Sequence record: OL631482.1 | Strand: one strand, 5' to 3' | Source: Escherichia phage ECML-359 | Length of the DNA: 64,000 nucleotides | Shown here: in pieces, positions 2,992 through 45,314 of the stretch | How positions within the stretch are numbered: the stretch's first letter is position 1 | Layout: every line of letters begins with the position of its first letter | Notes under the pieces: generated by a model | Database searches by the model: none | What the model was told of the DNA's origin: nothing | The model's input: the letters and a program-made list of their open reading frames with translations, nothing else | Made by a program: the position numbers and the translations under genes

Positions 2992-4819
2992 GTGTCGCAT
3001 TCATCCAATCTTTACGCTGCTGGGAATCTTTACCGAAGAGCATTTCGAACAGTTCTTTCCAGTTGTCGGGCAATTGAACAACTTCGAATACAGGTTCGAG
3101 CAATACGCGTTTGTACTCAGCATCTTCCAGAGAACCAAGTCCCTTTATATATCTGATAGTATGCTTCGGAAGTTTATCCTTAGCTTCTTCATAATCAGGA
3201 AGAGAATAAAACCATTCTTGTTTATCTTTGAGCTGCGCAATAATAACAGGAGTTTTCACAAAGCGAATTCGTCCTTCATGGAACAGCTCTGGCCAGTTAC
3301 TGAAAAACGCCAATAACGATGGATAGATACTACCGACACCATCCACATCCGCATCTGTCATGATAGCAATGTTTCGGTAATTCATATTCTCGGCCGGTTG
3401 TCCAATCGTTAACCCAGTAATTGCACACACATCAAAGGCTTCGGCGTTCTTCATAACATCAACAGCTTTCAGGCCCCATGTGTTTTTAAACTTACCACGT
3501 AACGGATAAGCACCTTGCAATTCACGGTCGCGAACCTTGATAAATGGCCCGGTTGCAGAATCACCTTCGGTCAGGAACAGAGTCGTTTCCAGCTTATCAT
3601 TGCCCCATTCGTTGGCCTTGATATGCTTTTGCACCTTGGCCTTTGAAGCTTTCTTATTCGCCTTGGTCTCTGCTGCTTTCTCTGCAGCCAATTTACGGGC
3701 TAATGCAGCTTCAACAATCGGCATAATCAGCGGTTCATTTTTCAGAATAGCTTGCGCGATTTTCTTGGCATCAATCTTAATGTGATTTCGAATTTCACCA
3801 GCCGGAGAAGTCAATCGCTCCTTAGTCTGGGAATCAAATCGCATGTTGCTCATATCGCGAATGAACATAAGCATGGTGAGGCATTCCTTAACTCGTGCCT
3901 TTGTCACCTCAATGCCTTTATATTTGCGTTTAATGGCTGGCTGAAGATGTTCACAGATATCATCCATAACACATTCAACGTGGTGTCCACCATTCTTTGT
4001 ATGAATGTTGTTGACATAAGTCAACTGGCGGAAACCATCCGGGCTAGTCGTAAAGGCCATCGATACTGTATCAGTTTCCTGGATAACAACTTCGGTTCCG
4101 AATTGCTTGGCGAACTTCTTGAAATTGCCATCAACCTTTTTACCATTAAAGGTAAACTGAATATCTGGATAAACAACCGCAAGAGTCTGCAGACGGTCCA
4201 ATGTAATATCCAGATAAATCCGGGACAGGCTATTTTCTTCAAAGTGACTGAAGTCCGGAACAAAAATAACAGTTGTACCTTTACCCTTAGATTTCTTGGT
4301 AGACCAACCTTTGTTTTCCATACCATTGGAGCAGTTAACGGTGATTTCATTTGCGCCGTCGGCGGTAATCCCGGTGAACAATACAGAGAAAATATTGGTC
4401 AGAGAAGACCCGACGCCATTCATCCCACCAGTTTTACGTTCAGCATCATCACCGAAGTTACCACCTGCTTTTGGAATAGTCCATGCTGCAACCGGGCCAG
4501 GGATTTGTTCACCGTTTTGGTCTGTAACCATTGCTTGTGGAATACCACGGCCATTATCGGAAACCGAAATCTGATTATCTTTAATTTGGACATCAATTTT
4601 ATTGGCAAATTTAAAACTGGTGCGAATTGCTTCATCAACAGAGTTATCGATAATTTCATCAATCAGTTTTACAATACCAGGAACATAGCTTACGGACTTA
4701 TATTCACCAAACAAGAATCGCTCATGCGCTTCATTTGAACTGGAACCAATATACATCCCGGAACGTTTTTTGATATGCTCGACGTCCGAGAGTACTTTAA
4801 TTTCATTATTAATCATCAT
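2987..4819 (-). CDS. 39: DNA topoisomerase II large subunit (gp39 with gp60-equivalent region fused, 610 aa)
   Basis: GyrB-like ATPase/TOPRIM motifs (GMYIGSS, DNGRGIP); single uninterrupted ORF. Confidence 0.9.
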   Translation of the reverse strand: MMINNEIKVLSDVEHIKKRSGMYIGSSSNEAHERFLFGEYKSVSYVPGIVKLIDEIIDNSVDEAIRTSFKFANKIDVQIKDNQISVSDNGRGIPQAMVTDQNGEQIPGPVAAWTIPKAGGNFGDDAERKTGGMNGVGSSLTNIFSVLFTGITADGANEITVNCSNGMENKGWSTKKSKGKGTTVIFVPDFSHFEENSLSRIYLDITLDRLQTLAVVYPDIQFTFNGKKVDGNFKKFAKQFGTEVVIQETDTVSMAFTTSPDGFRQLTYVNNIHTKNGGHHVECVMDDICEHLQPAIKRKYKGIEVTKARVKECLTMLMFIRDMSNMRFDSQTKERLTSPAGEIRNHIKIDAKKIAQAILKNEPLIMPIVEAALARKLAAEKAAETKANKKASKAKVQKHIKANEWGNDKLETTLFLTEGDSATGPFIKVRDRELQGAYPLRGKFKNTWGLKAVDVMKNAEAFDVCAITGLTIGQPAENMNYRNIAIMTDADVDGVGSIYPSLLAFFSNWPELFHEGRIRFVKTPVIIAQLKDKQEWFYSLPDYEEAKDKLPKHTIRYIKGLGSLEDAEYKRVLLEPVFEVVQLPDNWKELFEMLFGKDSQQRKDWMNATL

Positions 4820-4841
4820 CTTTCCTCTTGTGTATGGAGGT

Positions 4842-14885: not shown

Positions 14886-15404
14886 TTAATAACCCCGGTC
14901 CTGACGAGCGAAGTTTTCAGCATTTTTCAGGTAATACAGTTTAAAGATTTCTTCTGCTGACAGACCAAGACCATGGAACATGTTCAGAACAAAGTGCAGG
15001 ATGTCAATCATCTCAAATTTAATTTCGAGCTGGTCTTCAGGAGACAACTCATCAATACGACGATTACGGAATTCAGCATGTTGGGCTTTCCACGGTTTCC
15101 AACAACTTGAGGCTGCTTTCTCGCCATTAGACATACCCCCGAGAGAAGTCAGAAGTTCACGGAATTCGTCGTCGACATAATCTTTCTGGTTACGAAGCCA
15201 TGCAACAACATCACCTGCAGTAGCCAATTCATCTGGATGTGAGTTATATTCTGGTTTTTCAGTAGCCAGACGAACTTGCAATGATTTCTGCATATCAAGC
15301 ATAATCTGCAGCGGGTCAATACCTTTTGTAATTGCATTGTCATAAGCCAGAGCAGCTTTATCAACGCCAGCAATCAGTTGGGAACACTCGTTAAAATGAG
15401 CCAT
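14886..15404 (-). CDS. 56: MazG-like NTP pyrophosphohydrolase (gp56 position, dCTPase-like)
   Basis: ExxE...ExxD-type motifs (DEFRE, EIKFEMID); size 172 aa similar to T4 gp56. Confidence 0.55.
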   Translation of the reverse strand: MAHFNECSQLIAGVDKAALAYDNAITKGIDPLQIMLDMQKSLQVRLATEKPEYNSHPDELATAGDVVAWLRNQKDYVDDEFRELLTSLGGMSNGEKAASSCWKPWKAQHAEFRNRRIDELSPEDQLEIKFEMIDILHFVLNMFHGLGLSAEEIFKLYYLKNAENFARQDRGY

Positions 15405-15442
15405 TATATTTTCCTTATCAATTCATGTTATTTTGTATGTTA

Positions 15443-15467
15443 ATTATATCATATTGGTTTGAAGCAT
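15443..15467 (-). promoter_or_regulatory. MotA-box middle promoter (aTGCTTCA, 11 nt, TATAAT) upstream of gene 56
   Basis: Read on minus strand. Confidence 0.5.
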
Positions 15468-15488
15468 AAATACACAGAAGGAGGATAT

Positions 15489-15686
15489 ATGCTCAAACTA
15501 TCTAGTCTAATTCAAGCCATCAAAGGCAGTCGTAAGCGAACGATTCTGGTCCTTTCGATACTCTGTTTAGTTCTACTCTGGAACTTCGTTGTTGCCCCTG
15601 TTGCATTGACACATGGTGTTATATTACCAGTCATTGCACTCGAATCAGTTGTAGATATTTTACTGGCATTAATCGGCCTTATATAG
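15489..15686 (+). CDS. plus-strand small hydrophobic protein (about 65 aa, two predicted TM helices)
   Basis: AGGAGG 4 nt before ATG; MLKLSSLIQAIKGSRKRTILVLSILCLVLLWNFVVAPVAL...; only non-overlapping plus ORF here. Confidence 0.35.
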   Translation: MLKLSSLIQAIKGSRKRTILVLSILCLVLLWNFVVAPVALTHGVILPVIALESVVDILLALIGLI

Positions 15687-15688
15687 AT

Positions 15689-15712
15689 GGAATAATGTGA
15701 ATATTATTCCAT
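15689..15712. other. perfect hairpin GGAATAAT-gtgaat-ATTATTCC
   Basis: Directly after the plus-strand small ORF stop; no clear U tract. Confidence 0.5.
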
Positions 15713-15804
15713 CGGATTTGGAAATTAACCAGTAAGAAAGACAAAAAACATCATGGGCTTTTTAGCTCTTGATGTTTTTCTGCGGAACTTACCGGAATTC
15801 CTTC

Positions 15805-18055: not shown

Positions 18056-18349
18056 TTATTCACCTGTAACCCATTGAACAATTTTGCTATTGTCAAATGA
18101 AGCATCGCAATACAGAACATAGTTATACTGCATAACGTCACCAGAAGTCAATTTGTCAGATACTTCTTTAACCATATCAGGGCGGTCACGTTTAGTTATG
18201 TTCATAATATCAGCATAAATCTGATGTTCAACATCAGTCTGGTCAGCAGTCATAGACCACTCACAAAGGTCTTTATCAAGTCCAGCAGTAACTGGAGCTG
18301 TACCACATGATGCTACGGTAAGAATTGCCGCGATTAATAACTTTTTCAT
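18056..18349 (-). CDS. sp: spackle-like periplasmic protein (97 aa)
   Basis: Signal peptide MKKLLIAAILTVASC; T4 Sp size and 61.3 position. Confidence 0.55.
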   Translation of the reverse strand: MKKLLIAAILTVASCGTAPVTAGLDKDLCEWSMTADQTDVEHQIYADIMNITKRDRPDMVKEVSDKLTSGDVMQYNYVLYCDASFDNSKIVQWVTGE

Positions 18350-19239: not shown

Positions 19240-20679
19240 TTAAAATTTCATTTGAGCAGCAAGGTCGTCCAGGTCGCTCCTGTTGACCCTGGTTTGTCGA
19301 TTCATTTCAGCCTGGCGATTCATCTCACCGGTGGCTTCTTTAACCGTAGGACCTTGTTTAGGAGCTGAATCATCATCAACCTCGTACCAGCGCTGATTAC
19401 CTTTCTTAACACCCATCTTGAATTTATTATAGTAGTTTTTATCGCCGTAACGAGACTTAAGCTGTTTGATTAACTGCAGTCCCATTTGAGCGAATTCTTC
19501 GGTCTCAACAACACCTAACATAAAGTCAGCTGTGTGAGCAATACCAAAGGATTCTGCGATGTCAGCCATATCAATCTCGGCTGCAACGTTCGCGCCCCTG
19601 GTTGTCTGCGCTGCAGTCCACAAGACCACATTTTTCTCGACTGCCAGACCACGAAGTTCTTCTGCAACCATCTTAATCAGACCGTAACTATTTTCGGTAA
19701 ACGTTTTCAGTCTTGAGCTCGCACAGATTGCCAGGTAGTCAACAATAATCACATCCGGTACAAACCCTTGCTTCAGTTTGTATTCATTCAGCAACGCGCG
19801 GAAGGTATCTGCATGAGCACCACCAGTTGGATATTGTTTTATCTTCAGAGTCCCAAGAGTCCCGGAAGCACGCCATTTTTCCATCTTAGCTTTATATTCC
19901 GCCCATGATATATGCCCTTCATCAATATCATCCAGAGACACATCCAGCAAGTTGGCATCAATACGTTTGGCACATACTTCTTCGGCCATTTCCATGCTTA
20001 TATAAAGAACGTTATGACCAGTCTGAAGATAGTCAGCAGCTAACGAACAAAGTCCAAGGGATTTACCGACGTTGGTCCCGGCCAGTAAAACGTTTTCTGT
20101 ACCATACTCAACTCCACCCTTCGTGATTTTATTCAGGATGTTAATGCGGAATGGAACCTTTTTCGATTTGTTCAGATAAGTCTGGAATCTAGCCTCGTAA
20201 TCGTTTAACCAGTCATGGCCGAGGGCAGAATCAAAACAGATAGATAATGCATCACGCATGATATCAGGGATAGCACCAATATCCGGGATTCGTTTATCAC
20301 GTTTATCTTTCGGAAGTTCGGCATTACTCTGGATTTCGATAATCCTGGATGTGGCATTGAACATCGCAGACTTCTGTACATACTTCTCGGTTTCTCTGAC
20401 CAACCATTCCTGGTCTTCTGGAGTATCGGCCAGGACTCCTAAGAGTTTCTTTGTGCCTTCGTATTCAACTTCAGAAAGGTCAGAACTGTCGAGCGCGATA
20501 TCAAGTGCAGTCTTAGTTGGCACCGCCTGATATTCTTTTACGTGTTCGTTAATCGTATTAAAAAGGGTCTTCGCTGGACCCTTTTCAAAATATGTGCTAT
20601 TCAGATATGGCCAGACTTTAACAAAATATTCCTTGTTAAAGAGTAGCTGGGATAAAATAGTTTCTACCACTTCCACCAC
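19240..20679 (-). CDS. 41: replicative DNA helicase gp41 (DnaB-like, 479 aa)
   Basis: DnaB-family Walker A/B region (GTNVGKS, VIIVDYL). Confidence 0.9.
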   Translation of the reverse strand: MVEVVETILSQLLFNKEYFVKVWPYLNSTYFEKGPAKTLFNTINEHVKEYQAVPTKTALDIALDSSDLSEVEYEGTKKLLGVLADTPEDQEWLVRETEKYVQKSAMFNATSRIIEIQSNAELPKDKRDKRIPDIGAIPDIMRDALSICFDSALGHDWLNDYEARFQTYLNKSKKVPFRINILNKITKGGVEYGTENVLLAGTNVGKSLGLCSLAADYLQTGHNVLYISMEMAEEVCAKRIDANLLDVSLDDIDEGHISWAEYKAKMEKWRASGTLGTLKIKQYPTGGAHADTFRALLNEYKLKQGFVPDVIIVDYLAICASSRLKTFTENSYGLIKMVAEELRGLAVEKNVVLWTAAQTTRGANVAAEIDMADIAESFGIAHTADFMLGVVETEEFAQMGLQLIKQLKSRYGDKNYYNKFKMGVKKGNQRWYEVDDDSAPKQGPTVKEATGEMNRQAEMNRQTRVNRSDLDDLAAQMKF

Positions 20680-21008
20680 CTCTTTTTCATTTTAATCTTA
20701 TCAATTTCATCTTGTATTTGCATTGTAACACACTTTTCTACATGCACTGCAAGCTCCGCTTTGCGGTCTTCAGAAGGGGTGCCGAAATCAACTGAAACTT
20801 TTCCCGATGGTTCAATTTTAATTCCGGTTACGTACACAATGTGATTGGACCCATCGGGGAGTGATAACAGAATTTCCTGTCGTACGGTTCCCATGGATTG
20901 CCGGATAATCTCCAAACTTTTTTCGTAGTAAGGCACAGAAGGAGCCTTAGCTCCCTCCGCATCTTTCTCGAAATTATCTAAATCAGATAAATCGATATCA
21001 TTCATCAA
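20664..21008 (-). CDS. 40: gp40-like protein (114 aa)
   Basis: Position between uvsX and 41 as in T4. Confidence 0.45.
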   Translation of the reverse strand: MMNDIDLSDLDNFEKDAEGAKAPSVPYYEKSLEIIRQSMGTVRQEILLSLPDGSNHIVYVTGIKIEPSGKVSVDFGTPSEDRKAELAVHVEKCVTMQIQDEIDKIKMKKRWWKW

Positions 21009-22176
21009 GGTCTTCCATCATATCTAAATCGTTTTCGATATCTGCCGCAGATGGTTTTGCCTTACCTTCAGGGGCAGAGTATTTTTCAACCTTGGAGGCA
21101 ATAAGCGCATCAACTTCGGCGTCAACAACAGCATTGCTATCGATTGCACCCAGCTGGTAATGTCGTTTGATTGCATCACGGAAAGGTTCGTGCTTGAACA
21201 ACGGACCCCAGAATTCGGTACAGTTAGTATCTTTTGCACGCCATGATTTTTCTTCGCGGACCATTTCACCGGTCTCAACATCAAGATATTCACGGTTATA
21301 CCAACCAACTTTCGGTTTCACCACAAATCCGATTTCCATTGCCATATCAAGCAGGCCAGAATACGGGTCAATACCACCATCGAATTTTACATCAATGAAG
21401 AATTTACTTTTCTCTTTGACCATACGAGATTTTTCGGCGTTCAGAACAAATTGGAAACCTTCAAGTTCTTTACCAGTTTCTTTAATCTGGCGTTTGCCGA
21501 TAATGAATACGGTGTCCGCAGAATACATAACACCTGTACCACCGGTCATAACGGTTTTGCTATACATCTCAATCGTCTCGATTGTATGGTTAACCGCGAC
21601 ACAAGGAATATCCTTGATACTAAAATATGGGGTAACAATACGGAACAGAGATTTCAGGGATTTAGCACGAGTCATATCGCCAACGACTTTTTCGTTCATC
21701 GCATCTTCTGTTTCTTTTTTAGACGCCATGTTACCGATTGAGTCAATGAAGATAATGACTTTTTCACCACGCTCAATTGCTTCAAGCTGGTTAACCATAT
21801 CAACTTTCAATTGTTCAACCGACTGGATTGGTGTGTGAATAACACGTTCCGGGTCAACTTTCATTGCACGAAGATATGCTTCTGTGATACCAAATTCTGA
21901 ATCATAGAACAAACAGATTGCATCGGGGTATTTGTTCATATATGCAGAGACCATCGTTAAACCCATATTGGATTTAAAGTGTTTTGACGGACCAGCAAAA
22001 ATAGTCAAACCTGACTGCATACCACCATCTAGTGCACCGCTGATTGCAATGTTCAGCATTGGGATTTTTGTACGAACTACATCTTTATCATTAAAGAACT
22101 TGGACTTGGTAAGAGTCGCAGTCATTTTGGATGTAGAAGCTTTAATCAAACGGGATTTCAAATCTGCAATAGACAT
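20998..22176 (-). CDS. uvsX: UvsX recombinase (RecA-like, 392 aa)
   Basis: RecA-fold Walker A GPSKHFKS; T4 UvsX size. Confidence 0.9.
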   Translation of the reverse strand: MSIADLKSRLIKASTSKMTATLTKSKFFNDKDVVRTKIPMLNIAISGALDGGMQSGLTIFAGPSKHFKSNMGLTMVSAYMNKYPDAICLFYDSEFGITEAYLRAMKVDPERVIHTPIQSVEQLKVDMVNQLEAIERGEKVIIFIDSIGNMASKKETEDAMNEKVVGDMTRAKSLKSLFRIVTPYFSIKDIPCVAVNHTIETIEMYSKTVMTGGTGVMYSADTVFIIGKRQIKETGKELEGFQFVLNAEKSRMVKEKSKFFIDVKFDGGIDPYSGLLDMAMEIGFVVKPKVGWYNREYLDVETGEMVREEKSWRAKDTNCTEFWGPLFKHEPFRDAIKRHYQLGAIDSNAVVDAEVDALIASKVEKYSAPEGKAKPSAADIENDLDMMEDLDE

Positions 22177-22261
22177 TCATTTTTTCCATAGGCACCATTA
22201 TATTTTTCTCACAGGTTTAAGATAGGATAATTATATCACTGTATTTTTAGAGCAATTAATG

Positions 22262-22765
22262 TTAGTTAATACCTTGACGTGCTTTCTCTTTAGCTACACA
22301 TTTATTAATATAGCTCAGACGGTTTTGAGCAGAACGCTGATACATATCGCGATACTCATTAGCTTTTGGAGAACCAGCCTCTGCTGCCTGATAAGCTTCC
22401 GCGCGCATGATGTTTATCTGCATATTGATGTATGACATGCAGACCTGTGAAATCTGGTTAACAGTATCCAGGTCATTTTGGCGCTTGGTTTCTGCTTCCA
22501 GTTTAGCAATGATTTCGTCATGCTTCGCAGCTTGTTCGCGTTTGTACTCAATTTCACGTTGAGCATATTTCGCGCAGTTATTTCCACATTGATTGTTGTC
22601 ACGTTTGTAGATAAGTCCAGTACCACCTTTGAAATCAAAGGAACCATTATGCACCTGACGGTCTGCAGCAATTCTTGCTTTACCAATCTCACTGGCATTA
22701 ACTACATCACCCTGGTAAGCACAACCGGATAGCAGCATAACAGCTGCGATAGCTAACTTTTTCAT
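22262..22765 (-). CDS. putative lipoprotein (about 167 aa from MKKLAIAAVMLLSGC)
   Basis: Lipobox LSGC; GAGGAA site; occupies the T4 beta-gt/42 slot. Confidence 0.5.
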   Translation of the reverse strand: MKKLAIAAVMLLSGCAYQGDVVNASEIGKARIAADRQVHNGSFDFKGGTGLIYKRDNNQCGNNCAKYAQREIEYKREQAAKHDEIIAKLEAETKRQNDLDTVNQISQVCMSYINMQINIMRAEAYQAAEAGSPKANEYRDMYQRSAQNRLSYINKCVAKEKARQGIN

Positions 22766-22775
22766 TTTATTTTCC

Positions 22776-22919
22776 TCAATTAAAACATTCATAACGGGCT
22801 TGGAGTCCCAAAAATACCCAACCCAAAATTAAAGTTGGAATCATATGCGGAGTCATTATTGCCCAATAGATTGACATACTAAAAAATGCAATCAGTACAA
22901 TAATTGTAATTATCTTCAT
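22776..22919 (-). CDS. small membrane protein (47 aa, imm.1-like)
   Basis: ATGA overlap with imm stop; hydrophobic MKIITIIVLIAFFSMSIYWAIM... Confidence 0.3.
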   Translation of the reverse strand: MKIITIIVLIAFFSMSIYWAIMTPHMIPTLILGWVFLGLQARYECFN

Positions 22920-23158
22920 TTGGTTTCCTTGATGATAATTAACTGTGCGTTTGATTTACGTTCAGCAACGAGTGCCCAAATAAACGCAATAAACCACCCA
23001 ACCATTGTCCAACCTAACAGAAGGTTAACAAAGAAGATTCCGCAATTACTTTTGGTTCCACGCAGTAGCGCGATAATCCACGGTAGAAAATAGGTCAGTG
23101 CAGCCAAGAAGAAAGAACCAGCACCAAGAACAACAGTACCCGCAATTAATGTTTCCAT
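22916..23158 (-). CDS. imm: Imm-like superinfection immunity membrane protein (80 aa)
   Basis: Two TM helices; adjacent to gene 43 as in T4. Confidence 0.5.
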   Translation of the reverse strand: METLIAGTVVLGAGSFFLAALTYFLPWIIALLRGTKSNCGIFFVNLLLGWTMVGWFIAFIWALVAERKSNAQLIIIKETK

Positions 23159-23230
23159 TTTAATATCCTTAAGTTAATCATCAGTAATTGATGGAGTAAT
23201 CATACGGCAATCCTTTGCCATTGTAAACAC

Positions 23231-25945
23231 TTAAAAATCAAACATATCAAAAAGAGATGCTTTTTTCTCGTAATCAACCTTAGCTGCTTCAGAGAACCCT
23301 GTCAATGGCTTAACAAAAGTCTTCTGGAACAGTGTGTTGTAGTCCATCCACTGCAAGACTTGGTCACGAATTTCAATCGGGAGTTCAATCCCTGATGGCC
23401 ATGCAATCACGGTTTCGCCAAACGGGTTACCAACTTTAAGAGGAAGTACATACACCTTTTCCCCTTCCATGATTTGTGGAACAGTCTTCATACCTTTAGT
23501 TGCACGCATGTAAGCGAGCACGCCTTTGATATGAGCTGGGCACTTAAATCCAGGGAAACCACCCTCATTATATTTCTGGATGTTGTTAACTGATGATACA
23601 CCTGCGATGGTCATGTAGTTAAGCTCATTAAATTCCTTGTTGAATTCCTTGAAGTATGTCTGCAGAGATTCTTCACCTTCTTGCAGCATACGGCGGATAC
23701 ATTCTTTCAGAGCTTTCTGACATGCTTTTGGTGTACTCGACTTTTGAGTTTCCAGGCCCATGATTTTCAGTTTCGGAACAGCGTATCGTGTGCCTTCCAT
23801 ATCGTACACGTTCAGAGCATAACGCTTCTTCGCCGTCCAGAATCCACCAACACCTTTAGAACCAAGTGGAGGACATGCAATCGCTTCACGGTCCATAAAC
23901 ATAAGGTGCTGTTTGTTGTTCATGTATTCAGCCAGCTCACGGAAAGCTTTATCGATTGCCGGTTCCAGACGGTCTTTCGCGAACTTGTCCATGAAGTCAA
24001 CCAGGTGGTTTGTATCGCGGAATTTAGATTCGCCACCAACCTTTTTAATCAGGTTATCGCACTGGATATAAATGGAGTCAGTATCGCCATAGAATACATA
24101 TGTTTCACCACTTGTACCACAAACACTATCAAAATATTCGTTAACTTTACGCTCAATCCACTGCAATGCAAGTTGTCCGAAAGATGTAATCGCGGTTGCA
24201 TTTCGCAGGTCAAAGTAACGGAACCAGATATTACCCAGAGCGCCATAACAACTGTTGATAAGCAGTTTACGGTTAATCTGTGCGGTCATGCCTGCGACTT
24301 CTTCCATCTGCGCTTTGTACAACATACCATTCAGAACTGTTTGATTCAGACCGTGCAAGGTTGTTTTCATATTGTCATCGAAGTCATAACGATAATCAAC
24401 TTCAGGCTCGGTTGTACCAGTTCCTGGATTACGCAGGGCTTCCTTAATCAGTTCACCATTACGTTGAGCCGCAAGCATATAACCTTTGTGCTCTTTACGC
24501 TGATTAAACACCTTGGTGACTTCTGTTGGAATAATACCCGCAACATCTTTAAAATACATCATACCGTTTGGAGCACAACTAAATGTATCAGATGGACGGT
24601 CAGCAGTTCCTGCAATGTATTCATACATCGGCGCTGGTGCAAATGACCCGGCAATCGTTTCTGGACTGATGTTAATCTGTCGGATGATGCTCGGATACAG
24701 AGATGTTAAGTCACAGCTCATAACGTATTTGTATGCGTTCGGAATAGGTTCCTTAACAAATGCACCTGGGAACGATTGACGAACATGCGATTTGGTTTCC
24801 GGAATGACTTTGTTTTGAGTCTTCAGGCTGTTAAAGATAATCGCATCCCAAGTTTTGATTGGGCTGAATACAGACTGAATCTGCATTTTTGCGTAATAAC
24901 CCATTGACTGGCTAAGGTTAATAAACTGGCGCTTACGGTCAATCTGTACAACACGATAAACATCGATGATGTTATAAGAAATATACCGTTGGTGATTTGA
25001 TTCACGCAGTTTAGAAATCGGACCATCATATGGGAGTTTACCAACACCCAGCTCAGATTCCGCAACATAATCCAACGAATAAGATGGCTGGTTTGTGAAG
25101 CTGAACTTTTTATACAGGTCCAGATAATCCAGAACAGAGATACCCAGAATCTGAATGATTTCTTGTTCTTCACCGAATCCGTTGTTAATGACCTTAACTT
25201 TTGTACGACGATGTGGACTCAGACGTTTTGCTGTAGCTTCACCAAACACATTTTTAAGGCGGTTGTAGATATATGGAATATCAAACTTCTCGATGTTCCA
25301 ACCAGTTAACATAACCGGAGTTTTCTCGTTCCAGAATACCAAATACTGCTGGAGCATTTCTTCTTCTGAATCGAAAGCCATATAAACAATTTTTTCCAGG
25401 ATTTCTTCAGGGACTTCATCGCCGCCATCTTCTTGCAGCTTAGCAGCAATATCGATAGACCATTGCTCCACAGTGGCGTATGGTGAGCTCAAAAGGTCAA
25501 AGACATAGAATTTATCGTCTACCGAATCATAGTGCGTCAGGGCATCAATAGGGTGACGTGCTTCAGACGGCTCAGGGAACCCATCAGGAGATGTCACCTC
25601 GATATCGAAGTTAGCCACACGGATTTTACTTGAATCGTATTTGATTTCGTGCGGGTAACGGTCGGACAAGTATGCGAGTTTAAAGTCATCCATACCCATA
25701 GCTTCGAGACCCATGTCATTCATTCGCTTCATCCACTGGGATGCATCACGCATGGAGTCGAATTCTTTTTTCACACAACCTTTATTATAGATGTCTGTAT
25801 ACTTTGCAGCCTGGTCTTCGCGGGCATGCATAAACAAGCATGGAGCATAAGGGATTTCACGAACACGTTCATGACCGTTCTTGTCAATGTATCGTTCGAG
25901 TAGATTGTCACCGATTTGTTCGATAGTTAAATAAAATTCTTGCAT
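23231..25945 (-). CDS. 43: DNA polymerase gp43 (family B, 904 aa)
   Basis: Exo motifs (FDIE), polymerase motifs (SLYPSII, YGDTDS). Confidence 0.95.
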   Translation of the reverse strand: MQEFYLTIEQIGDNLLERYIDKNGHERVREIPYAPCLFMHAREDQAAKYTDIYNKGCVKKEFDSMRDASQWMKRMNDMGLEAMGMDDFKLAYLSDRYPHEIKYDSSKIRVANFDIEVTSPDGFPEPSEARHPIDALTHYDSVDDKFYVFDLLSSPYATVEQWSIDIAAKLQEDGGDEVPEEILEKIVYMAFDSEEEMLQQYLVFWNEKTPVMLTGWNIEKFDIPYIYNRLKNVFGEATAKRLSPHRRTKVKVINNGFGEEQEIIQILGISVLDYLDLYKKFSFTNQPSYSLDYVAESELGVGKLPYDGPISKLRESNHQRYISYNIIDVYRVVQIDRKRQFINLSQSMGYYAKMQIQSVFSPIKTWDAIIFNSLKTQNKVIPETKSHVRQSFPGAFVKEPIPNAYKYVMSCDLTSLYPSIIRQINISPETIAGSFAPAPMYEYIAGTADRPSDTFSCAPNGMMYFKDVAGIIPTEVTKVFNQRKEHKGYMLAAQRNGELIKEALRNPGTGTTEPEVDYRYDFDDNMKTTLHGLNQTVLNGMLYKAQMEEVAGMTAQINRKLLINSCYGALGNIWFRYFDLRNATAITSFGQLALQWIERKVNEYFDSVCGTSGETYVFYGDTDSIYIQCDNLIKKVGGESKFRDTNHLVDFMDKFAKDRLEPAIDKAFRELAEYMNNKQHLMFMDREAIACPPLGSKGVGGFWTAKKRYALNVYDMEGTRYAVPKLKIMGLETQKSSTPKACQKALKECIRRMLQEGEESLQTYFKEFNKEFNELNYMTIAGVSSVNNIQKYNEGGFPGFKCPAHIKGVLAYMRATKGMKTVPQIMEGEKVYVLPLKVGNPFGETVIAWPSGIELPIEIRDQVLQWMDYNTLFQKTFVKPLTGFSEAAKVDYEKKASLFDMFDF

Positions 25946-26006
25946 TTGGTTTCCTTTATAGTCGAGTGATTGACTTTTGTTTTATGACTTGATGTTATTA
26001 TACTAC

Positions 26007-31727: not shown

Positions 31728-32743
31728 GGTTGTACCTCAAGATATAATTTGTTGGCCAATGCTTTAAGAGCTTTTGATTCTTTCTCATTGGTGTCAGGTA
31801 ATGCATCAATATATTCTGCCATCATATCAGTTAAGCGTTTTATGTCTAACTCTTCTTCGGAGTCAGTCGTATCAACACTGTTATCAACCTTATTGACAAC
31901 ACGCAATTCATGTACACGCTTTTCTAATTCAGATTCGAACTTGGTCAGGTCTTTATCGACTTTTTCTACAATAACACGGACTGATAGGTCTTTGAAGTCG
32001 TCGTAGTTAATAGTTTCGTTTGGATAAAAAATCTTCCGATGCCAGGTGGTTTCATTCGGAATAAATTTCATCTCTTCGGTTTCTGTATCAAATTCCCAGA
32101 ATCCGCGCGGGTCATTCTCATCACCTGCTGTTAATGTCCATGGCGTTCCTATGTACTTAACGTTCGCAGCTTCTGAAATGGTATGGAAGTGCCCAGACCA
32201 AACTTGCTTGTACTTCTTAAGGAAATCAGGCTCAAGCCCGTGGGATTTCAATCCTTTATAGAAATAAAACCCGGTTAATTCCCAGTGACCGATGCAATAT
32301 TCGGCACCAGAAGTTTTGATGTGTTGATGAATGTCAGTCGCGTTCTCGTCACACATCCATGGAATCATATCAATCTGACAACCGTCAAAATCAACAGTCG
32401 TTGGCTTGTCGTAGATTTTAACATGGTCATACTTATTCAGGAGTTCGGTGATAGCATTAGGATGAATCTTATTCTTCAGATTCATGTCATGGTTCCCGAC
32501 TATCGTGTGCATAGTAATTCCTGCTTCACGAAGGAGTTCCATAATCTCGCGGCTGAATTCCATTGTCTTATGCGTTACGGCCTTACGGACGTCAAAAATA
32601 TCACCATATTGAATCCAAACTTTAATTCCATTCGCTTTGGAATATGCAATCGCCTGTAAAATACCATCACGTTGAATGTTTTGAGCCCATGGGTCGTCAG
32701 CTTTGACACCCAAGTGCCAATCACCTAAATTTAAAATTTTCAT
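31724..32743 (-). CDS. 47: recombination nuclease subunit gp47 (SbcD/Mre11-like)
   Basis: Phosphoesterase motifs GDWHLG, GDIFD, GNHD; ORF-track start is TTG, true ATG at MKILNLGDWHLG. Confidence 0.9.
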   Translation of the reverse strand: MKILNLGDWHLGVKADDPWAQNIQRDGILQAIAYSKANGIKVWIQYGDIFDVRKAVTHKTMEFSREIMELLREAGITMHTIVGNHDMNLKNKIHPNAITELLNKYDHVKIYDKPTTVDFDGCQIDMIPWMCDENATDIHQHIKTSGAEYCIGHWELTGFYFYKGLKSHGLEPDFLKKYKQVWSGHFHTISEAANVKYIGTPWTLTAGDENDPRGFWEFDTETEEMKFIPNETTWHRKIFYPNETINYDDFKDLSVRVIVEKVDKDLTKFESELEKRVHELRVVNKVDNSVDTTDSEEELDIKRLTDMMAEYIDALPDTNEKESKALKALANKLYLEVQP

Positions 32744-32883
32744 AAGCCAAGCGCCGTTATCGCAGTGCAAAATAAAATTATTGAAATGAACCCGTCAGGA
32801 GTAGAAAAGAATCCTATCCAACAAGCTCGTGTGAATGTGTAGAATGCCATGAATAACACAACATATCCTAAAAATAATTCCAT
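32740..32883 (-). CDS. small hydrophobic protein (47 aa)
   Basis: GAGGAG site; ATGA overlap with gene 47 start; MELFLGYVVLFMAFYTF... Confidence 0.3.
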   Translation of the reverse strand: MELFLGYVVLFMAFYTFTRACWIGFFSTPDGFISIILFCTAITALGL

Positions 32884-32903
32884 ATAATCTCCTCAGTTGG
32901 TTC

Positions 32904-32928
32904 ATTTTATCATCCCGAATATAAAGCA
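32904..32928 (-). promoter_or_regulatory. MotA-box middle promoter (tTGCTTTA, 11 nt, TAAAAT)
   Basis: Overlaps T tract of terminator 32927-32949. Confidence 0.4.
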
Positions 32929-32949
32929 AAAAAGGAAGCACTAGGCTTC
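32927..32949 (-). terminator. terminator hairpin GGAAGC-ctagt-GCTTCC with T6 run
   Basis: Read directly. Confidence 0.6.
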
Positions 32950-33453
32950 CTTTCCAATTAATACACCATACAGAGGTTCATGAGAAGACCTGAACTTGAT
33001 AGGCTTATAGGTAATAGTACCTTCATTTTCTGCTTTAATACGAGCGGCTTCAAATTGAAGTATCATCTCATTTTTATCAGATTTAATCTTATCAAAATCC
33101 GTCGAATTCGTCATTCATATGACCTCTTAAAAATCAGGATGTTCGTCTTGAAATATATTACCCAATCGTTTTAATTCGTCGGAAGTAAGAATATCTACAT
33201 CATCAATAGTCATAATACACCTCTTAAACTTTTTCGTATTCGTCATTCATTAACCAGCAGTCCATGTTATCATCGTTGCCACCACTTCTTAAGTTGATGT
33301 GAATCCACCCAAACCTTGGCTACAGGCTCAATCCGAAAAATTTCATCGGAATACTGCCCAACCATTTTATATTCGGTTTCAGTCTGCTTGATACAGATAT
33401 TACCATATGAGCGAAGTCTGAAAGCGGCTCCGACAAGAAGCCGCTTAAAAGGT

Positions 33454-33765
33454 TTATTTACTAATGCCATTTACGATTTCCCAAATTTGTTTGCGAGTAG
33501 TTTCCCACATCAACTTAATCAGGTCTTCCGTAACTGGTTGGCGGTAAATTCCACGCAGTTTAACTAAAGCATATTTGTATGCTTCAAAATTGTTTTCCAG
33601 CACTGCCCCTTGAGCATGCTTATTCAGTCGTGCAATTTCACGAGCATTCTTTTTCAGAATCTTTGCCGCTTGACTCTGTGCTTCGAGTGCGTTCGCTTCT
33701 TCGAGACGTTCCTGTGCTTCTTCAATCTGCTTATCGGTCAGTTGAGAAATATCTGGAGCTTGCAT
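33454..33765 (-). CDS. hypothetical protein (103 aa)
   Basis: Minus ORF in 47-55 interval where T4 carries alpha-gt. Confidence 0.4.
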   Translation of the reverse strand: MQAPDISQLTDKQIEEAQERLEEANALEAQSQAAKILKKNAREIARLNKHAQGAVLENNFEAYKYALVKLRGIYRQPVTEDLIKLMWETTRKQIWEIVNGISK

Positions 33766-33766
33766 A

Positions 33767-34018
33767 TTAATCCTTGGGAGTTAACTCAATTGTAAAATAT
33801 AGATTAGCATTATCCACATGATAACGGTAATCAACGTTATTATCCGGCGAAGTAAATTCCAGATTCCGGACGTTTAAAGGGTCGATATCAATTGGAAGAC
33901 CTTTTATGTCTCGCAGATAAAGTTTAATGAAATATGGGAGCGCAGTAAAGTCTTCCTCGATTTTATCTAAAAAATCGGTAATATCAAATTGATGTTCCAT
34001 ATAAAAAATCCAAATCAC
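33767..34018 (-). CDS. hypothetical protein (83 aa)
   Basis: Minus ORF. Confidence 0.4.
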
Positions 34019-37811: not shown

Positions 37812-38282
37812 TTAATCATGTTTCCACACCCCATTGGTATTTGACCAAAGTCGCTGATTATCTGACCCTCGCCACAGTTTTTTGGTCGGAAGATTTTTCT
37901 CATACTTCCCATCAATAATAACATCAACATATTTAAGCATTTCTAGTTGTTTAATATCTTCAAACTTATATCCTGTCCACATCCAAATGCTTTTATTTGG
38001 ATAAAGATTTTTAACAGTTTGAACCACAGAGTGAATAACATCTCGGTTATCAGGATAGAGAGGGTCTCCTCCAGTTATAGTTAATCCTTCTATATAATCA
38101 TTATTCAAACATTCAATTAATTGTTCTAGTGTTTCACCAGTGAATGGAATACCATTTCTAGCGTTCCATGTTGATTTATTATAACACCCTTCACATTTAT
38201 GCAAACAACCTGTAACGAAAAGAACGACCCTGCAACCAGGGCCATTAATAAAATCACAAGGATAAATTCTATCATAATTCAT
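37812..38282 (-). CDS. nrdG: anaerobic ribonucleotide reductase activating protein NrdG (156 aa)
   Basis: Radical-SAM CxxxCxxC (CLHKCEGC); T4 NrdG size. Confidence 0.85.
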   Translation of the reverse strand: MNYDRIYPCDFINGPGCRVVLFVTGCLHKCEGCYNKSTWNARNGIPFTGETLEQLIECLNNDYIEGLTITGGDPLYPDNRDVIHSVVQTVKNLYPNKSIWMWTGYKFEDIKQLEMLKYVDVIIDGKYEKNLPTKKLWRGSDNQRLWSNTNGVWKHD

Positions 38283-40096
38283 TGGTGTTTAACCCTATGC
38301 ATGATTTCTTTATTTTTGCCGAGATTAAATCCGCGTTCGTTCGGATTTCCCAAATAACCGCAAGTTCTTCTTATTGTGTTCATCTTTTTAGGGTCAGTTT
38401 CTCCACAAATAGAACAAACAAATCCGTTTTCAGTAGGAGTCATTTCATGGGTACTTCCACACGTAAAACATTTATCTACTGGCATGTTAACACCAAAATA
38501 ATCTAAATGTTGCGCGGCATAATCCCATACAGCCTCAAGACCTTTTAGGTTATTTTTCATATCAGGAAGTTCAACATAAGAAATGTGACCACCTGTCGCA
38601 ATGAAATGATATGGTGCTTCACGAGAAATCTTTTCAAACGGAGTGATATTTTCTTCTACTGAAACATGGAAACTGTTAGTGTACCATCCTTTATCGGTAA
38701 CATCTTTTACACTTCCATATTTTTCAGTATCAAGTTTACAGAAGCGATAACAAAGGTTTTCAGCAGGAGTAGAATACAAGCTAAAAGCAAAACCGGTTCT
38801 TTCAGTCCACTGCTTAAGACGAGCATTCATTTTAGTCAAAATTTCTTGTCCAATATCACGACCGACAAGAATATTCAATTCGTGAATACCAATGTATCCC
38901 AAAGACACTGAACTTCTACCGTTTTTAAATAACTCAATTATATCATCATCGGGTTTAAGACGAACCCCGAATGCACCTTCTTGGTAAAGAATAGGAGCAA
39001 CAGTCGCTTTAACTCCTTTTAAGGAATTAATTCTACACATCAAAGCTTCAAAACACAAATCCATTCGCTCATTGAACAATTCGATAAATTTCTGTTCATT
39101 GAACTGTGTTCCAATATAAGAATCTAACGCAATGCGAGGAAGATTCAGTGTTACAACGCCAAGATTATTACGTCCATCAAGAATTTCATTGCCAGTCGAA
39201 TCTTTCCATAAGCTCAAGAAACTACGGCAACCCATTGGAGAAACAGGAATAGATGAACCGGTGATAGCTTTGTTATTCTTAACTGAAATAATATCAGGAT
39301 ACATCCTTTTGCTTGCACACTCTAGAGCAAGCTGCTTAATATCATAGTTCGGGTCGTCTTTATAAAGATTAACACCTTCTTCAACGAACATAACAAGTTT
39401 AGGGAAAATAGGAGTTATCCCATCGCGACCAAGGCCTTTAATACGATTTTTCAGAATTGCTTTCTGAATCATTCGTTCAGTCCAGTCAGTTCCCGTGCCA
39501 AACGTAATTGTCACAAAAGGCGTTTGCCCATTTGAACTAAAGAGCGTATTTACTTCATATTCATAAGCTTGGAATGCATCGTATACGTCTTTTTCTGTTT
39601 TAGATTGGGCATAATTCAATGCATCAGTGATTTGCCATTTTTCTGCATCTTCAATATGTTTTGCGTATGTACGTTTAACATAAGGAGAAAATACTTTGTC
39701 TACATTAGCAAAAGTCGTTCCGCCATATTGGTGAGAAGCAACCTGTGCAGTAATTTGTGCCATAATTGCAGTAGCAACACCGATTGATTTAGGAGTTTCA
39801 ATCTGTGCATTACCAAGCTTAAATCCGTTCTCAAGCATTCCTTTTAAATCTACTAAACAGCAATTAGTAAATGGAAGAGCAGGGGAATAATCAATATCAT
39901 GGAAATGAATAATTCCACTTTCATGTGCTTTCATAATAAAAGACGCGACCATATTTTTGGCAATGTGTTTAGATACAATACCAGCCATAAGGTCCCGTTG
40001 AGTTGGAAAAACACGAGAATCTTTATTAGCATTCTCGTTTAAAAGGTCTTTATTAGTTTTATGAATCAATCCTTCAATTTCGTTTTCAATTGTCAT
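38279..40096 (-). CDS. nrdD: anaerobic ribonucleotide reductase NrdD (605 aa, no intron)
   Basis: C-terminal zinc ribbon and glycyl-radical motif region (CGYLG); same length as T4 NrdD. Confidence 0.9.
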   Translation of the reverse strand: MTIENEIEGLIHKTNKDLLNENANKDSRVFPTQRDLMAGIVSKHIAKNMVASFIMKAHESGIIHFHDIDYSPALPFTNCCLVDLKGMLENGFKLGNAQIETPKSIGVATAIMAQITAQVASHQYGGTTFANVDKVFSPYVKRTYAKHIEDAEKWQITDALNYAQSKTEKDVYDAFQAYEYEVNTLFSSNGQTPFVTITFGTGTDWTERMIQKAILKNRIKGLGRDGITPIFPKLVMFVEEGVNLYKDDPNYDIKQLALECASKRMYPDIISVKNNKAITGSSIPVSPMGCRSFLSLWKDSTGNEILDGRNNLGVVTLNLPRIALDSYIGTQFNEQKFIELFNERMDLCFEALMCRINSLKGVKATVAPILYQEGAFGVRLKPDDDIIELFKNGRSSVSLGYIGIHELNILVGRDIGQEILTKMNARLKQWTERTGFAFSLYSTPAENLCYRFCKLDTEKYGSVKDVTDKGWYTNSFHVSVEENITPFEKISREAPYHFIATGGHISYVELPDMKNNLKGLEAVWDYAAQHLDYFGVNMPVDKCFTCGSTHEMTPTENGFVCSICGETDPKKMNTIRRTCGYLGNPNERGFNLGKNKEIMHRVKHQ

Positions 40097-45076: not shown

Positions 45077-45077
45077 A

Positions 45078-45314
45078 TCATAATCCAAATAATTTTTTAT
45101 AGAGTTTAGCAAAAGGCCAGGCCACACACATTATAACAGCGACTACCCAGAATATAGGCCAGCAAAATGTTGTGAACACCGCATCATACTCGTCCCCACT
45201 TTCGTAGGGACTATCAAACTTGTGGAGCAACAGGGTAGTAATAAAACCTATCACAAGATAACCAAAAATAATGCTGATAATCAAAATAGTCATATTAATC
45301 CTTAAGCAATTCAA
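45078..45314 (-). CDS. small membrane protein (78 aa)
   Basis: Two hydrophobic helices. Confidence 0.4.
   Translation of the reverse strand: MNCLRINMTILIISIIFGYLVIGFITTLLLHKFDSPYESGDEYDAVFTTFCWPIFWVVAVIMCVAWPFAKLYKKLFGL

Follow-up and report, generated by a model that had tools for sequence, protein, structure and literature searches.

The genes for cytosine hydroxymethylation (hmC) and glucosylation are truly absent from the window, that is, the whole stretch of DNA analysed, which comprises the first 64 kb of the genome of a T4-like coliphage of the genus Gaprivervirus, and they are absent genome-wide in its close relatives. Our overall model, to which we assign a probability of about 60%, is that these phages carry a string of imm, 42.1 and a lipoprotein gene without a modification cassette, and that a Td enzyme with Asp at position 177 makes 5-methyl-dCMP, which brings 5-methylcytosine (5mC) into the DNA. 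That the Gapriverviruses discarded an ancestral cassette and rewired td to a dCMP methylase through the change of Asn177 to Asp, so that their DNA has 5mC for C, is a proposition which we regard as evenly balanced. The absence of gene 42 and of the glucosyltransferases has already been published for Gaprivervirus as a genus-level puzzle: the hmC gene is lost, yet dCTPase, DenA, DenB, Alc and Ndd are kept, and in T4 DenB, Alc and DenA are incompatible with C-DNA (PMC8056088, PMC12115623). Our follow-up adds a testable answer to the question, left open by two papers, of how a phage with dCTPase, DenB and Alc lives without a dCMP hydroxymethylase.

Gene order and missing modification genes

Positions 20000-26000 of the window share 96.5-97.8% identity with the phages pEC-M719-6WT.2, TH54 and SP18, and 60.9 kb can be aligned with TH54 at 95.1% identity. 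The genes from gp41 to gp43 all lie on the minus strand, and the interval from uvsX to gene 43 contains only imm, a membrane ORF of 47 aa and a lipoprotein gene of 167 aa. The features discussed here are:

14886..15404, minus strand: gene 56 ortholog (dCTPase/dUTPase), found by tblastn with T4 gp56
19240-20679, minus strand: gp41, ORF
20664-21008, minus strand: gp40, ORF
20998..22176, minus strand: uvsX recombinase, downstream flank of the locus; 392-aa ORF with 80.4% identity to T4 UvsX and 73.5% to JS98 UvsX
22177..22261, minus strand: intergenic, 85 bp, with a likely MotA-type middle promoter and Shine-Dalgarno sequence for uvsX
22262..22765, minus strand: lipoprotein, 167 aa, Imm.1 family (phrog_1754), by lipobox and PHROG match
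22776..22919, minus strand: membrane micro-ORF, 47 aa, homolog of T4 42.1 (phrog_3610)
22916..23158, minus strand: imm, superinfection immunity membrane protein (Pfam PF14373, phrog_1039)
23199..23227, minus strand: sigma-70-like promoter candidate upstream of imm (TTTACA-17-TATGAT)
23231..25945, minus strand: gene 43 DNA polymerase, upstream flank of the locus; 904-aa ORF with 60% identity to T4 gp43 and 78.5% to JS98 gp43
32743..34000, minus strand: alpha-gt slot with orthologs of 47.1, a-gt.2, a-gt.3, a-gt.4 and a-gt.5, found by tblastn with the T4 proteins

The original prediction that gene 42 and beta-gt are missing between uvsX and imm was borne out, as the lipoprotein and the 47-aa ORF occupy this place and tblastn returned no match there. 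It also holds on a wider scale, since no gene 42 or glucosyltransferase was found in the window or in the complete genomes of SP18 and TH54. Queries with T4 gp42, beta-gt, alpha-gt and Dam gave no tblastn match better than E=1 in the window and the complete SP18 genome (for gp42 the best E was only 1.6-2.3 in both), and nothing in the complete TH54 genome. A thymidylate synthase (TS) family profile made from ThyA, Td, gp42 and a 5hodCMP-synthase-like sequence detected one gene per genome in SP18 and TH54, namely td. Of the T4-type glucosyl-hmC pathway, gp42 and the alpha- and beta-glucosyltransferases are thus missing and the dCTPase gp56 is present. The genes of the arabinosyl-5-hydroxycytosine pathway were not encountered either: the five cassette proteins of phage JS98 have no homolog in the window or SP18 (E > 0.1) and none in TH54, and the sole TS homolog, td, carries D169 and not D169N. 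Moreover, Pfam searches with ten larger uncharacterised ORFs of the window revealed no methyltransferase, glycosyltransferase or TS-like domain, but only DUFs, an RlaP-like nucleotidyltransferase (nrdC.11), a MotB domain and a tail-needle-knob domain.

The MazG-like gene which had been noted at the gp56 position proved to be a true gp56 dCTPase ortholog, which aligns with T4 gp56 from end to end at 68% identity (172 aa, tblastn E 5e-77) and is syntenic between soc and 61. For the alpha-gt slot, the predicted loss of alpha-gt was correct and extends to mobB, neither of which has a tblastn match between 47 and 55. The small ORFs in this slot are no fillers, and we rejected them as replacements, because they correspond to the ordinary T4 genes 47.1 (78% identity), a-gt.2 (53%), a-gt.3 (43%), a-gt.4 (43%) and a-gt.5 (39%).

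The 85-bp spacer upstream of uvsX contains aaTTGCTCTAaaaatacagtgaTATAATtatcc, which can be read as a MotA box, a 12-bp spacer and a -10 element and thus represents a putative promoter. Apart from this promoter and the Shine-Dalgarno sequence, the spacer harbours nothing, in particular no pseudogene remnant of gene 42. The spacer of phage VR7 is longer and includes an additional 42-aa membrane ORF, which is not a gene 42 remnant. Just upstream of uvsX, a 60-bp stretch in VR7 is 93% identical to the uvsX upstream region of JS98, and the 83 bp of the window that span this stretch share 100% identity with VR7. The interval is best explained as a compact imm - 42.1 - Imm.1-like lipoprotein string with the uvsX promoter directly after it. 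Upstream of imm, the candidate at 23199..23227 agrees with 10 of 12 sigma-70 consensus positions; as our promoter scan gave fewer sites than in shuffled sequence, it is to be read as a consensus match only.

The td gene and the base in Gaprivervirus DNA

The original prediction allowed for an unmodified-cytosine or a differently modified phage. The second option is favoured because restriction analysis of VR7 indicated modified, unglycosylated cytosines, and it also fits the retention of dCTPase, DenA, DenB and Alc. VR7 DNA was described as DNA that 'has modified cytosines', unglycosylated and set apart from hydroxymethylated T4147, the source being the legend to a restriction digest, in which the base is not named (PMC6326788). 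It is highly improbable that Gapriverviruses contain plain cytosine as RB49 and Krischvirus do, in which case the loss of gene 42 would equal a loss of modification and Asp177 of Td would be functionally irrelevant. Such a phage would be expected to have no gp42, glucosyltransferase or arabinosylation genes, as we found for the window, SP18 and TH54, and VR7 is fully BREX-sensitive, as is the unmodified phage VpaE1 (PMC6326788). However, restriction analysis classed VR7 as a modified-cytosine phage, unlike VpaE1 (PMC6326788). Furthermore, the dCTPase (68% to T4), DenB, Alc and DenA, which in T4 are incompatible with C-DNA, are kept, whereas Krischvirus lacks DenB and Alc (PMC8056088 / PMC12115623), and Asp177 is conserved across Td proteins that are only 67-86% identical.

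Since td is located outside the 64-kb window, Asp177 was read from relatives with 95-98% nucleotide identity and not from the window genome itself. In SP18, pEC-M719-6WT.2, VR7 and YenM_P8, td encodes Asp instead of Asn at the position of E. coli ThyA residue 177, and all four proteins keep L143, C146, H147, D169, R21, R126, R127, R166, Y94 and W80 as well as an intact C-terminus. The Td proteins of T4, Mosigvirus, Dhakavirus and Gelderlandvirus have N177. Among the best 120 database clusters, N177 is found in 115 and D177 in the Gaprivervirus-type clusters (4/4) and in one uncultured T4-like relative. Gaprivervirus Td shares 65-70% identity with Td of the other genera, which are 74-84% identical among themselves; for eight of nine other genes compared, Dhakavirus is nearest to Gaprivervirus. 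The protein passes the NCBIfam model TIGR03284 (283 bits against a cutoff of 108), and its gene is orthologous to the T-even td and lies in the same order (frd - td - nrdA).

Gaprivervirus td does not have the Asn177 of a canonical thymidylate synthase, and the residues expected of a dCMP methylase (D177, C146, R21, R126, R127, R166, L143 and D169) are all present in the relatives. The substitution N177D turns TS toward dCMP with 5mdCMP as the product (PMC8670742), L143 goes with a methyl rather than a hydroxymethyl product, and D169N marks 5hodCMP synthases (PMC13326640). According to Lee et al., position 143 is acidic in hydroxymethylases and bulky hydrophobic in methylases (PMC13326640). 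Because the combination of Asp177, Leu143 and Asp169 equals this published dCMP methylase signature, we predict from the sequence that Gaprivervirus td converts dCMP to 5-methyl-dCMP and that virion DNA contains 5mC. Our literature search on 5mC in Straboviridae or Gaprivervirus and on a natural N177D phage Td returned nothing past the general rules, and it retrieved no enzymology or nucleoside chemistry for Gaprivervirus. The residue rules are correlative, and an Asp177 enzyme could also yield hydroxymethyl-dCMP or retain activity on dUMP.

With dCTPase gp56 kept, and with Asn177 changed to Asp in an otherwise intact reductive-methylation active site in the relatives' td, the phage would not be a plain-cytosine phage. 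In the proposed pathway, gp56 would first convert dCTP to dCMP, which the Asp177 Td would then methylate to 5-methyl-dCMP; kinases and gp43 would incorporate the base into DNA as 5-methylcytosine. The dTMP could be supplied by host ThyA, by host-DNA breakdown together with Tk, or by deamination of 5-methyl-dCMP by Cd. Several points count against this model. As td is the only TS-family gene and carries Asp177, the phage would have no canonical dTMP synthase. In E. coli K-12, which serves as the propagation host for some Gapriverviruses, McrBC, McrA or Mrr would be expected to attack fully 5mC-substituted DNA. The McrBC inhibitor Arn, absent in SP18 and represented in TH54 by only a weak 36-aa match, lends no support to 5mC.

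Two further explanations of the modified base were considered. It appears quite unlikely that the Asp177 Td is a dCMP hydroxymethylase which replaces gp42 and leads to DNA with non-glycosylated 5-hydroxymethylcytosine. Td does share both Asp177 and a Gln at position 82 with T4 gp42, and a lack of glycosyltransferases would agree with the term 'unglycosylated'. However, Td keeps Leu143, where an acidic residue has been reported for hydroxymethylases (PMC13326640), and the full-length TS C-terminus. Moreover, the VR7 digests included pre-treatment with T4 beta-glucosyltransferase, and T4147 was termed 'hydroxymethylated' but VR7 only 'modified' (PMC6326788). It is also unlikely, if somewhat easier to conceive, that an unrecognised enzyme elsewhere in the genome modifies cytosine, possibly to a new base, with the change in Td being unrelated or auxiliary. 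An 'unknown protein' and an 'unknown non-canonical base' have been proposed for the genus (PMC8056088, PMC12115623), and numerous ORFs in the genome lack a functional assignment. Yet the SP18 genes without relatives in JS98, T4, RB69 and other named phages are all shorter than 150 aa, the Pfam searches with the ten larger ORFs of the window revealed no modifying domain, and the Asp177 td by itself provides a candidate that is both specific and sufficient.

If the Asp177 Td is indeed a dCMP methylase, Gapriverviruses would be 5mC phages, which would put a name to the genus's 'unknown non-canonical base' and would represent a natural counterpart of the classic N177D/N229D mutagenesis. It would also show that exchange of a single residue can recruit an enzyme of core metabolism to DNA modification in nature. 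This would alter the predictions for sensitivity to McrBC, Mrr, type IV enzymes, BREX and CRISPR and would affect the sequencing and cloning of Gaprivervirus DNA. It would also bear on the transduction risk in phage therapy, for which no recommendation is at present given for the genus because information on the base is wanting.

The Imm.1-family lipoprotein beside imm

The lipoprotein had been thought to stand in place of the hmC genes. This does not hold, as it is an Imm.1 homolog which in JS98 coexists with a full cytosine-modification cassette. We rejected the replacement reading for the lipoprotein and the small ORF alike, since both adjoin imm in the sister genus Dhakavirus (JS98) too. 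The lipoprotein is related to T4 Imm.1 in the usual way; it is a routine T-even accessory gene product with predicted lipidation. It has a lipobox (LLSG|C, C15) with Ala at +2 and matches phrog_1754 at 8.2e-47 over 147 of 148 profile positions, compared to 6.1e-43 for T4 Imm.1. Their alignment retains the lipobox, an N-terminal Q-G-x-V-V motif and Cys60, Cys109 and Cys156, and C15, C60, C109 and C156 are invariant in 10 lipoprotein sequences including T4 Imm.1. The gene has a Shine-Dalgarno sequence, GAGGAAA, 5 nt ahead of its ATG. Homologs in a database of 5.8 billion proteins form only eight clusters, all of them T4-like, and an Imm.1-family gene adjoins imm in T4, JS98, VR7 and the window.

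The product of imm matches Pfam Imm_superinfect PF14373 (7.6e-18, 64.6 bits against a cutoff of 27.9) and phrog_1039 (4.7e-30) and is 50.6% identical to T4 Imm over 83 aa. The 47-aa micro-ORF, whose start overlaps the imm stop (ATGA), matches phrog_3610 at 7.6e-27. In tblastn searches it matched JS98 orf44 (53%) and, in T4, the spacer that separates gene 42 from imm (57% over 30 aa, E 1.6e-9); in VR7 it is annotated as 42.1. The products of imm, 42.1 and the lipoprotein gene would all be envelope-directed, as two small inner-membrane proteins and one lipoprotein.

A role of the lipoprotein in superinfection exclusion, as the original prediction had put forward, is plausible only from its association with imm and its predicted envelope targeting. 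More specifically, it might act together with Imm, e.g. by masking an outer-membrane receptor or by obstructing, in the periplasm, the tail tip of an incoming phage, which we consider a tentative and rather doubtful possibility. In three genera with differing gene order, the lipoprotein gene adjoins imm; it is packed tightly with imm and 42.1, and its lipobox has an outer-membrane-type +2 residue. The protein also diverges fast, with 23% identity to T4 Imm.1 and 46-52% to JS98 orf43, whereas the Imm proteins of JS98 and the window are 68% identical. Precedents exist in the phage lipoproteins Llp of T5 and Cor of phi80/N15, which exclude other phages through receptor blocking. These are likewise small, envelope-aimed and expressed during infection and serve here as a working analogy; no sequence or fold similarity between them and the lipoprotein was detected. 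However, our literature search on Imm.1 and its homologs yielded nothing relevant to function, and adjacency to imm could mean only shared early expression. The lipoprotein has no family in Pfam, NCBIfam or PADLOC, and searches with the lipoprotein, 42.1 and imm against the PADLOC and NCBIfam families gave no defence-family or other match above threshold. The signal peptide of the lipoprotein resembled a 'T6SS immunity lipoprotein' model, but this match stayed below threshold (E 0.007, 16 bits for a cutoff of 43) and was disregarded. The AF2 model (mean pLDDT 70.9) consists of a long helix followed by two short helices with a poorly modelled N-terminus, and a Foldseek search against the PDB gave no informative match (best E 0.9).

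Relation to known systems

In the imm/42.1/imm.1 region of T4, the same three families (PF14373, the 42.1 micro-ORF and the phrog_1754 lipoprotein) occur in the same neighbourhood and on the same strand, downstream of gene 43 and upstream of uvsX. The order differs, being 43 - imm.1 - imm - 42.1 in T4 and 43 - imm - 42.1 - lipoprotein in the window, and the window lipoprotein has 167 aa compared to 125 aa for T4 Imm.1 (23% identity). In T4, 42, beta-gt and segA come before uvsX, whereas in the window uvsX follows directly. The Dhakavirus JS98 has the order imm - orf44 - lipoprotein - orf42..orf38 - uvsX and shares with the window imm, the 42.1-like orf44, the orthologous lipoprotein (46-52%) and the conserved uvsX upstream sequence. 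In addition, it carries between lipoprotein and uvsX a 4.4-kb arabosyl-5-hydroxycytosine cassette of five genes (bifunctional UDP-arabinose synthase-like, phosphatase, nucleotide kinase, 5hodCMP synthase-like and arabinosyltransferase-like), which Gaprivervirus lacks entirely. Within this cassette, orf39 encodes a divergent protein of the TS family (gp42 match at E 3e-8) with E143/N169/D177, which is the 5hodCMP-synthase signature (Lee et al., NAR 2026; PMC13326640). At the same locus, RB69 (Mosigvirus) has genes for a 5-hydroxy-dCMP synthase, UDP-arabinose and an arabinosyltransferase.

Krischvirus (RB49-like), with unmodified cytosine, lacks gene 42 and the glucosyltransferases as Gaprivervirus does. 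However, it is also without DenB, Alc and Ndd, whereas Gaprivervirus keeps all three and VR7 has been reported as modified (PMC8056088 / PMC12115623; PMC6326788). The dCMP methyltransferase of Xanthomonas phage XP12 and the engineered TS mutants N229D of L. casei and N177D of E. coli are TS-family proteins in which Asp at the 177 position steers methylation toward dCMP, and in XP12 all C is replaced by 5mC at the nucleotide-precursor level. In Gaprivervirus, by contrast, the enzyme with predicted methylase activity is encoded by the T-even td ortholog in its syntenic place, and no second TS-family gene accompanies it; this td shares the Asp described for these enzymes, in an otherwise TS-like active site.

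Gene content around uvsX and imm

By megablast, 32 phage records cover at least 80% of window positions 20000-26000, with 97.8% for each of the Escherichia phages pEC-M719-6WT.2 and TH54 and 97.7% for Yersinia phage vB_YenM_P8 as the best matches, followed by Shigella phage SP18 (96.5%) and VR20 (95.4%). Taxonomically, the matching records belong to the genus Gaprivervirus of the Tevenvirinae. Like the SP18 record, the window begins within rIIA, and it aligns to TH54 over 60.9 kb at 95.1%. All genes from gp41 to gp43 are encoded on the minus strand:

19240-20679, minus strand, gp41 ORF
20664-21008, minus strand, gp40 ORF
20998-22176, minus strand, uvsX ORF
22177-22261, 85-bp spacer
22262-22765, minus strand, lipoprotein of 167 aa with a lipobox (phrog_1754)
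22776-22919, minus strand, membrane ORF of 47 aa (42.1; phrog_3610)
22916-23158, minus strand, imm (Pfam Imm_superinfect, 7.6e-18)
23231-25945, minus strand, gp43 ORF

For a T-even phage, this is an unremarkable locus. Its genes are closely spaced, with the imm stop overlapping the 42.1 start (ATGA), and a Shine-Dalgarno sequence, GAGGAAA, lies 5′ of the lipoprotein start. A sigma-70-like site is located immediately upstream of imm; the promoter scan itself was not above chance. The spacer before uvsX, in which no gene remnant was seen, probably consists of a MotA box and a -10 element. In VR7, a 60-bp stretch of the equivalent spacer, immediately 5′ of uvsX, shares 93% identity with the sequence preceding uvsX in JS98; over 83 bp including this stretch, the window and VR7 are 100% identical. 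VR7 also carries an extra hydrophobic ORF of 42 aa (MIGMLLISLWLLSAFGIGFMYWW...; 3505-3745 of its record) between the lipoprotein and the uvsX promoter, which is bordered by CATTAATT / CGTTAATTGCT repeats and missing from window 22177-22261.

The original observation that the hmC-modification genes are missing was confirmed, and the absence extends to the complete genomes of relatives: T4 gp42, beta-gt, alpha-gt and Dam as tblastn queries gave no hit below E=1 in the window or the whole SP18 genome, and the whole TH54 genome had no match. T4 Imm matches window 22919-23158 at 51%, and T4 gp56 matches 14889-15404 at 68% identity, so that the gene described as MazG-like is indeed present at the gp56 position and is a genuine gp56. 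The only genes missing from the alpha-gt slot are alpha-gt itself and mobB, a homing endonuclease gene; the small ORFs there are not fillers but orthologs of 47.1, a-gt.2, a-gt.3, a-gt.4 and a-gt.5, each also found in T4. Between 56 and 61, the dam slot (15405-15804, about 400 bp) contains no Dam homolog, and the corresponding gap in SP18 is also without annotation.

Several further features were observed. A plus-strand 248-aa ORF (47430-48176) within the minus-strand early nrdC.9-nrdC.11 region combines a collagen-like repeat with an Sf6-type tail-needle-knob domain (Pfam PF16532, 4e-32); at 95% identity or more it occurs in only about eight phage records, for example TH54, and is missing from SP18, and more distant copies are found in the T4-like phages fHe-Yen9-01, IME-CF2 and 44RR2.8t. 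An intact 310-aa DUF7235 gene (44195-45127, minus strand; Pfam 1.2e-118) is split into gp092 and gp093 in the SP18 annotation. The SP18 genes “alca” and “alcb” (38071-38821, a region outside the window) do not represent an alc gene split in two; alcb looks like a duplicate of the N-terminal part of alc (...YGD..DGIYVYKG...GF.TDL...).

An Imm.1-like lipoprotein

The view that the lipoprotein stands in place of the hmC genes was not borne out. Its lipobox reads LLSG-C15 with Ala at +2, it matches phrog_1754 (8e-47) as does T4 Imm.1 (6e-43), and the alignment of both proteins retains the lipobox, a Q-G-x-V-V motif, Cys60, Cys109 and Cys156; these shared features identify it as a diverged Imm.1 and not as a gene 42 substitute. 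The adjacent 47-aa ORF, annotated as 42.1 in VR7, has a match of 57% over 30 aa in the spacer that separates 42 from imm in T4, and another in JS98 orf44. Otherwise, the lipoprotein had no family, defence-system or fold match, and nothing was found in the literature on its role or that of Imm.1. A putative function in exclusion or envelope protection is reasonable, though of rather low probability, since the gene adjoins imm in three genera despite an altered order, all three products are envelope-targeted and the protein diverges fast. A spackle (sp) ortholog (18056-18349, minus strand), with 88.7% identity to sp of JS98 and 65% to that of T4, has a lipobox-like signal at its start (MKKLLIAAILTVASCG). 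Counting imm, 42.1 and the Imm.1-like protein as well, the window thus encodes several envelope-directed early proteins in a stretch of 5 kb.

Td as a candidate dCMP methylase

The absence of gene 42 in Gaprivervirus is not new. Two papers from one group reported that the genus has no hmC enzyme yet retains dCTPase, DenA, DenB, Alc and Ndd, and proposed an unknown enzyme or an unknown non-canonical base (PMC8056088, PMC12115623). Modification-sensitive enzymes have been used to digest VR7 DNA, both after treatment with T4 beta-glucosyltransferase and without it (Gordeeva et al., NAR 2019; PMC6326788); VR5 and T4 were classified as glycosylated, T4147 as hydroxymethylated and VpaE1 as unmodified, and “VR7 has modified cytosines”. 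Of the two options originally raised, these digests favour a differently modified phage; plain unmodified cytosine, which the missing genes alone would allow, is very improbable.

A profile of the thymidylate synthase (TS) family built from ThyA, Td, gp42 and one 5hodCMP-synthase-like sequence identified exactly one such gene in SP18 and one in TH54, each annotated td. As td lies outside the window, its residue 177 (E. coli ThyA numbering) was read from relatives. The protein encoded by this td reads GLPFDIGSY, compared to GLPFNIASY in E. coli ThyA and LPFNIASY in T4 Td. Asp177 is present in SP18, pEC-M719-6WT.2, VR7 and the 86%-identical YenM_P8, while Td of T4, one Mosigvirus, one Dhakavirus and one Gelderlandvirus has Asn177. 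All other active-site residues checked are retained (R21, E58, W80, Y94, R126, R127, L143, C146, H147, Q165, R166, S167, D169, H207, Y209 and the C-terminus). Of the 120 best-matching clusters in a large protein database, 115 have Asn177; Asp177 is restricted to the four of Gaprivervirus type and one from an uncultured T4-like relative. The latter is a 292-aa Td with A82/L143/D169/D177, encoded next to frd on a Logan contig (SRR24146912; genes frd.2, frd.1, DHFR and td, with td at 3953-4831). Among isolates, it is closest to Gapriverviruses, at 67.5% identity, and the Asp-Td clade therefore reaches beyond the named genus. Gaprivervirus Td is unusually diverged, being 65-70% identical to Td of other genera, which share 74-84% among themselves; for nine other genes compared, Dhakavirus was nearest in eight.

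The N177D exchange moves TS from dUMP to dCMP, with 5-methyl-dCMP as product (PMC8670742), and a bulky residue at 143 accompanies methyl rather than hydroxymethyl products, with D169N marking 5-hydroxylases (PMC13326640). Under these rules, which are correlative, Asp177, L143 and D169 make the Gaprivervirus “Td” a predicted dCMP methylase and 5-methylcytosine (5mC) the predicted base, a model to which we assign a probability of about 0.5. Both the VR7 digests and the retained gp56 agree with it. With L143 in place, hmC is an unlikely base; a modification system of another kind, as proposed in the two earlier papers, is slightly less improbable and would make Asp177 unrelated or auxiliary. Because Gaprivervirus Td passes the thymidylate synthase model, automated annotation is blind to the difference. 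Under the 5mC model, the phage would be without a canonical dTMP synthase, and dTMP might come from host ThyA, from salvage or from Cd acting on 5-methyl-dCMP. As a caveat, McrBC in K-12 should attack 5mC DNA, and no convincing Arn homolog was found in SP18 or TH54. The predicted dCMP methylase offers a specific, testable explanation for a question left open in the literature.

Comparison with the T4, RB69 and JS98 loci

The gene order of this stretch in T4 is uvsX, segA, beta-gt, 42, imm, imm.1, 43; the order in JS98 (Dhakavirus) is 43, imm, orf44 (42.1-like), orf43 (lipoprotein), orf42, orf41, orf40, orf39, orf38, uvsX. JS98 orf43 and the window lipoprotein share 52% identity by tblastn (141 aligned aa) and 46% in a multiple alignment. 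The five extra JS98 genes (orf42-orf38) are counterparts of RB69 gp52:53, gp51, gp45, gp48 and gp46:47, whose products have been assigned to UDP-arabinose synthesis, nucleotide kinase, 5-hydroxy-dCMP synthase and arabinosyltransferase (Lee et al., NAR 2026; PMC13326640). The similarity between JS98 orf39 and T4 gp42 is weak (E 3e-8); orf39 carries E143, N169 and D177, which by sequence is the published 5hodCMP-synthase signature (PMC13326640). No homologs of the five cassette proteins were found in the window, SP18 or TH54. A TS homolog that modifies dCMP occupies this position in T4, RB69 and JS98 alike. Loss of a cassette from Gaprivervirus would be the simplest interpretation. Window UvsX is 80.4% identical to T4 and 73.5% to JS98; the other eight genes compared (56, 61, sp, 41, 40, imm, 43 and regA) clearly place the window nearer to JS98. 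The affinity of UvsX to T4 suggests a mosaic created by recombination next to the missing cassette.
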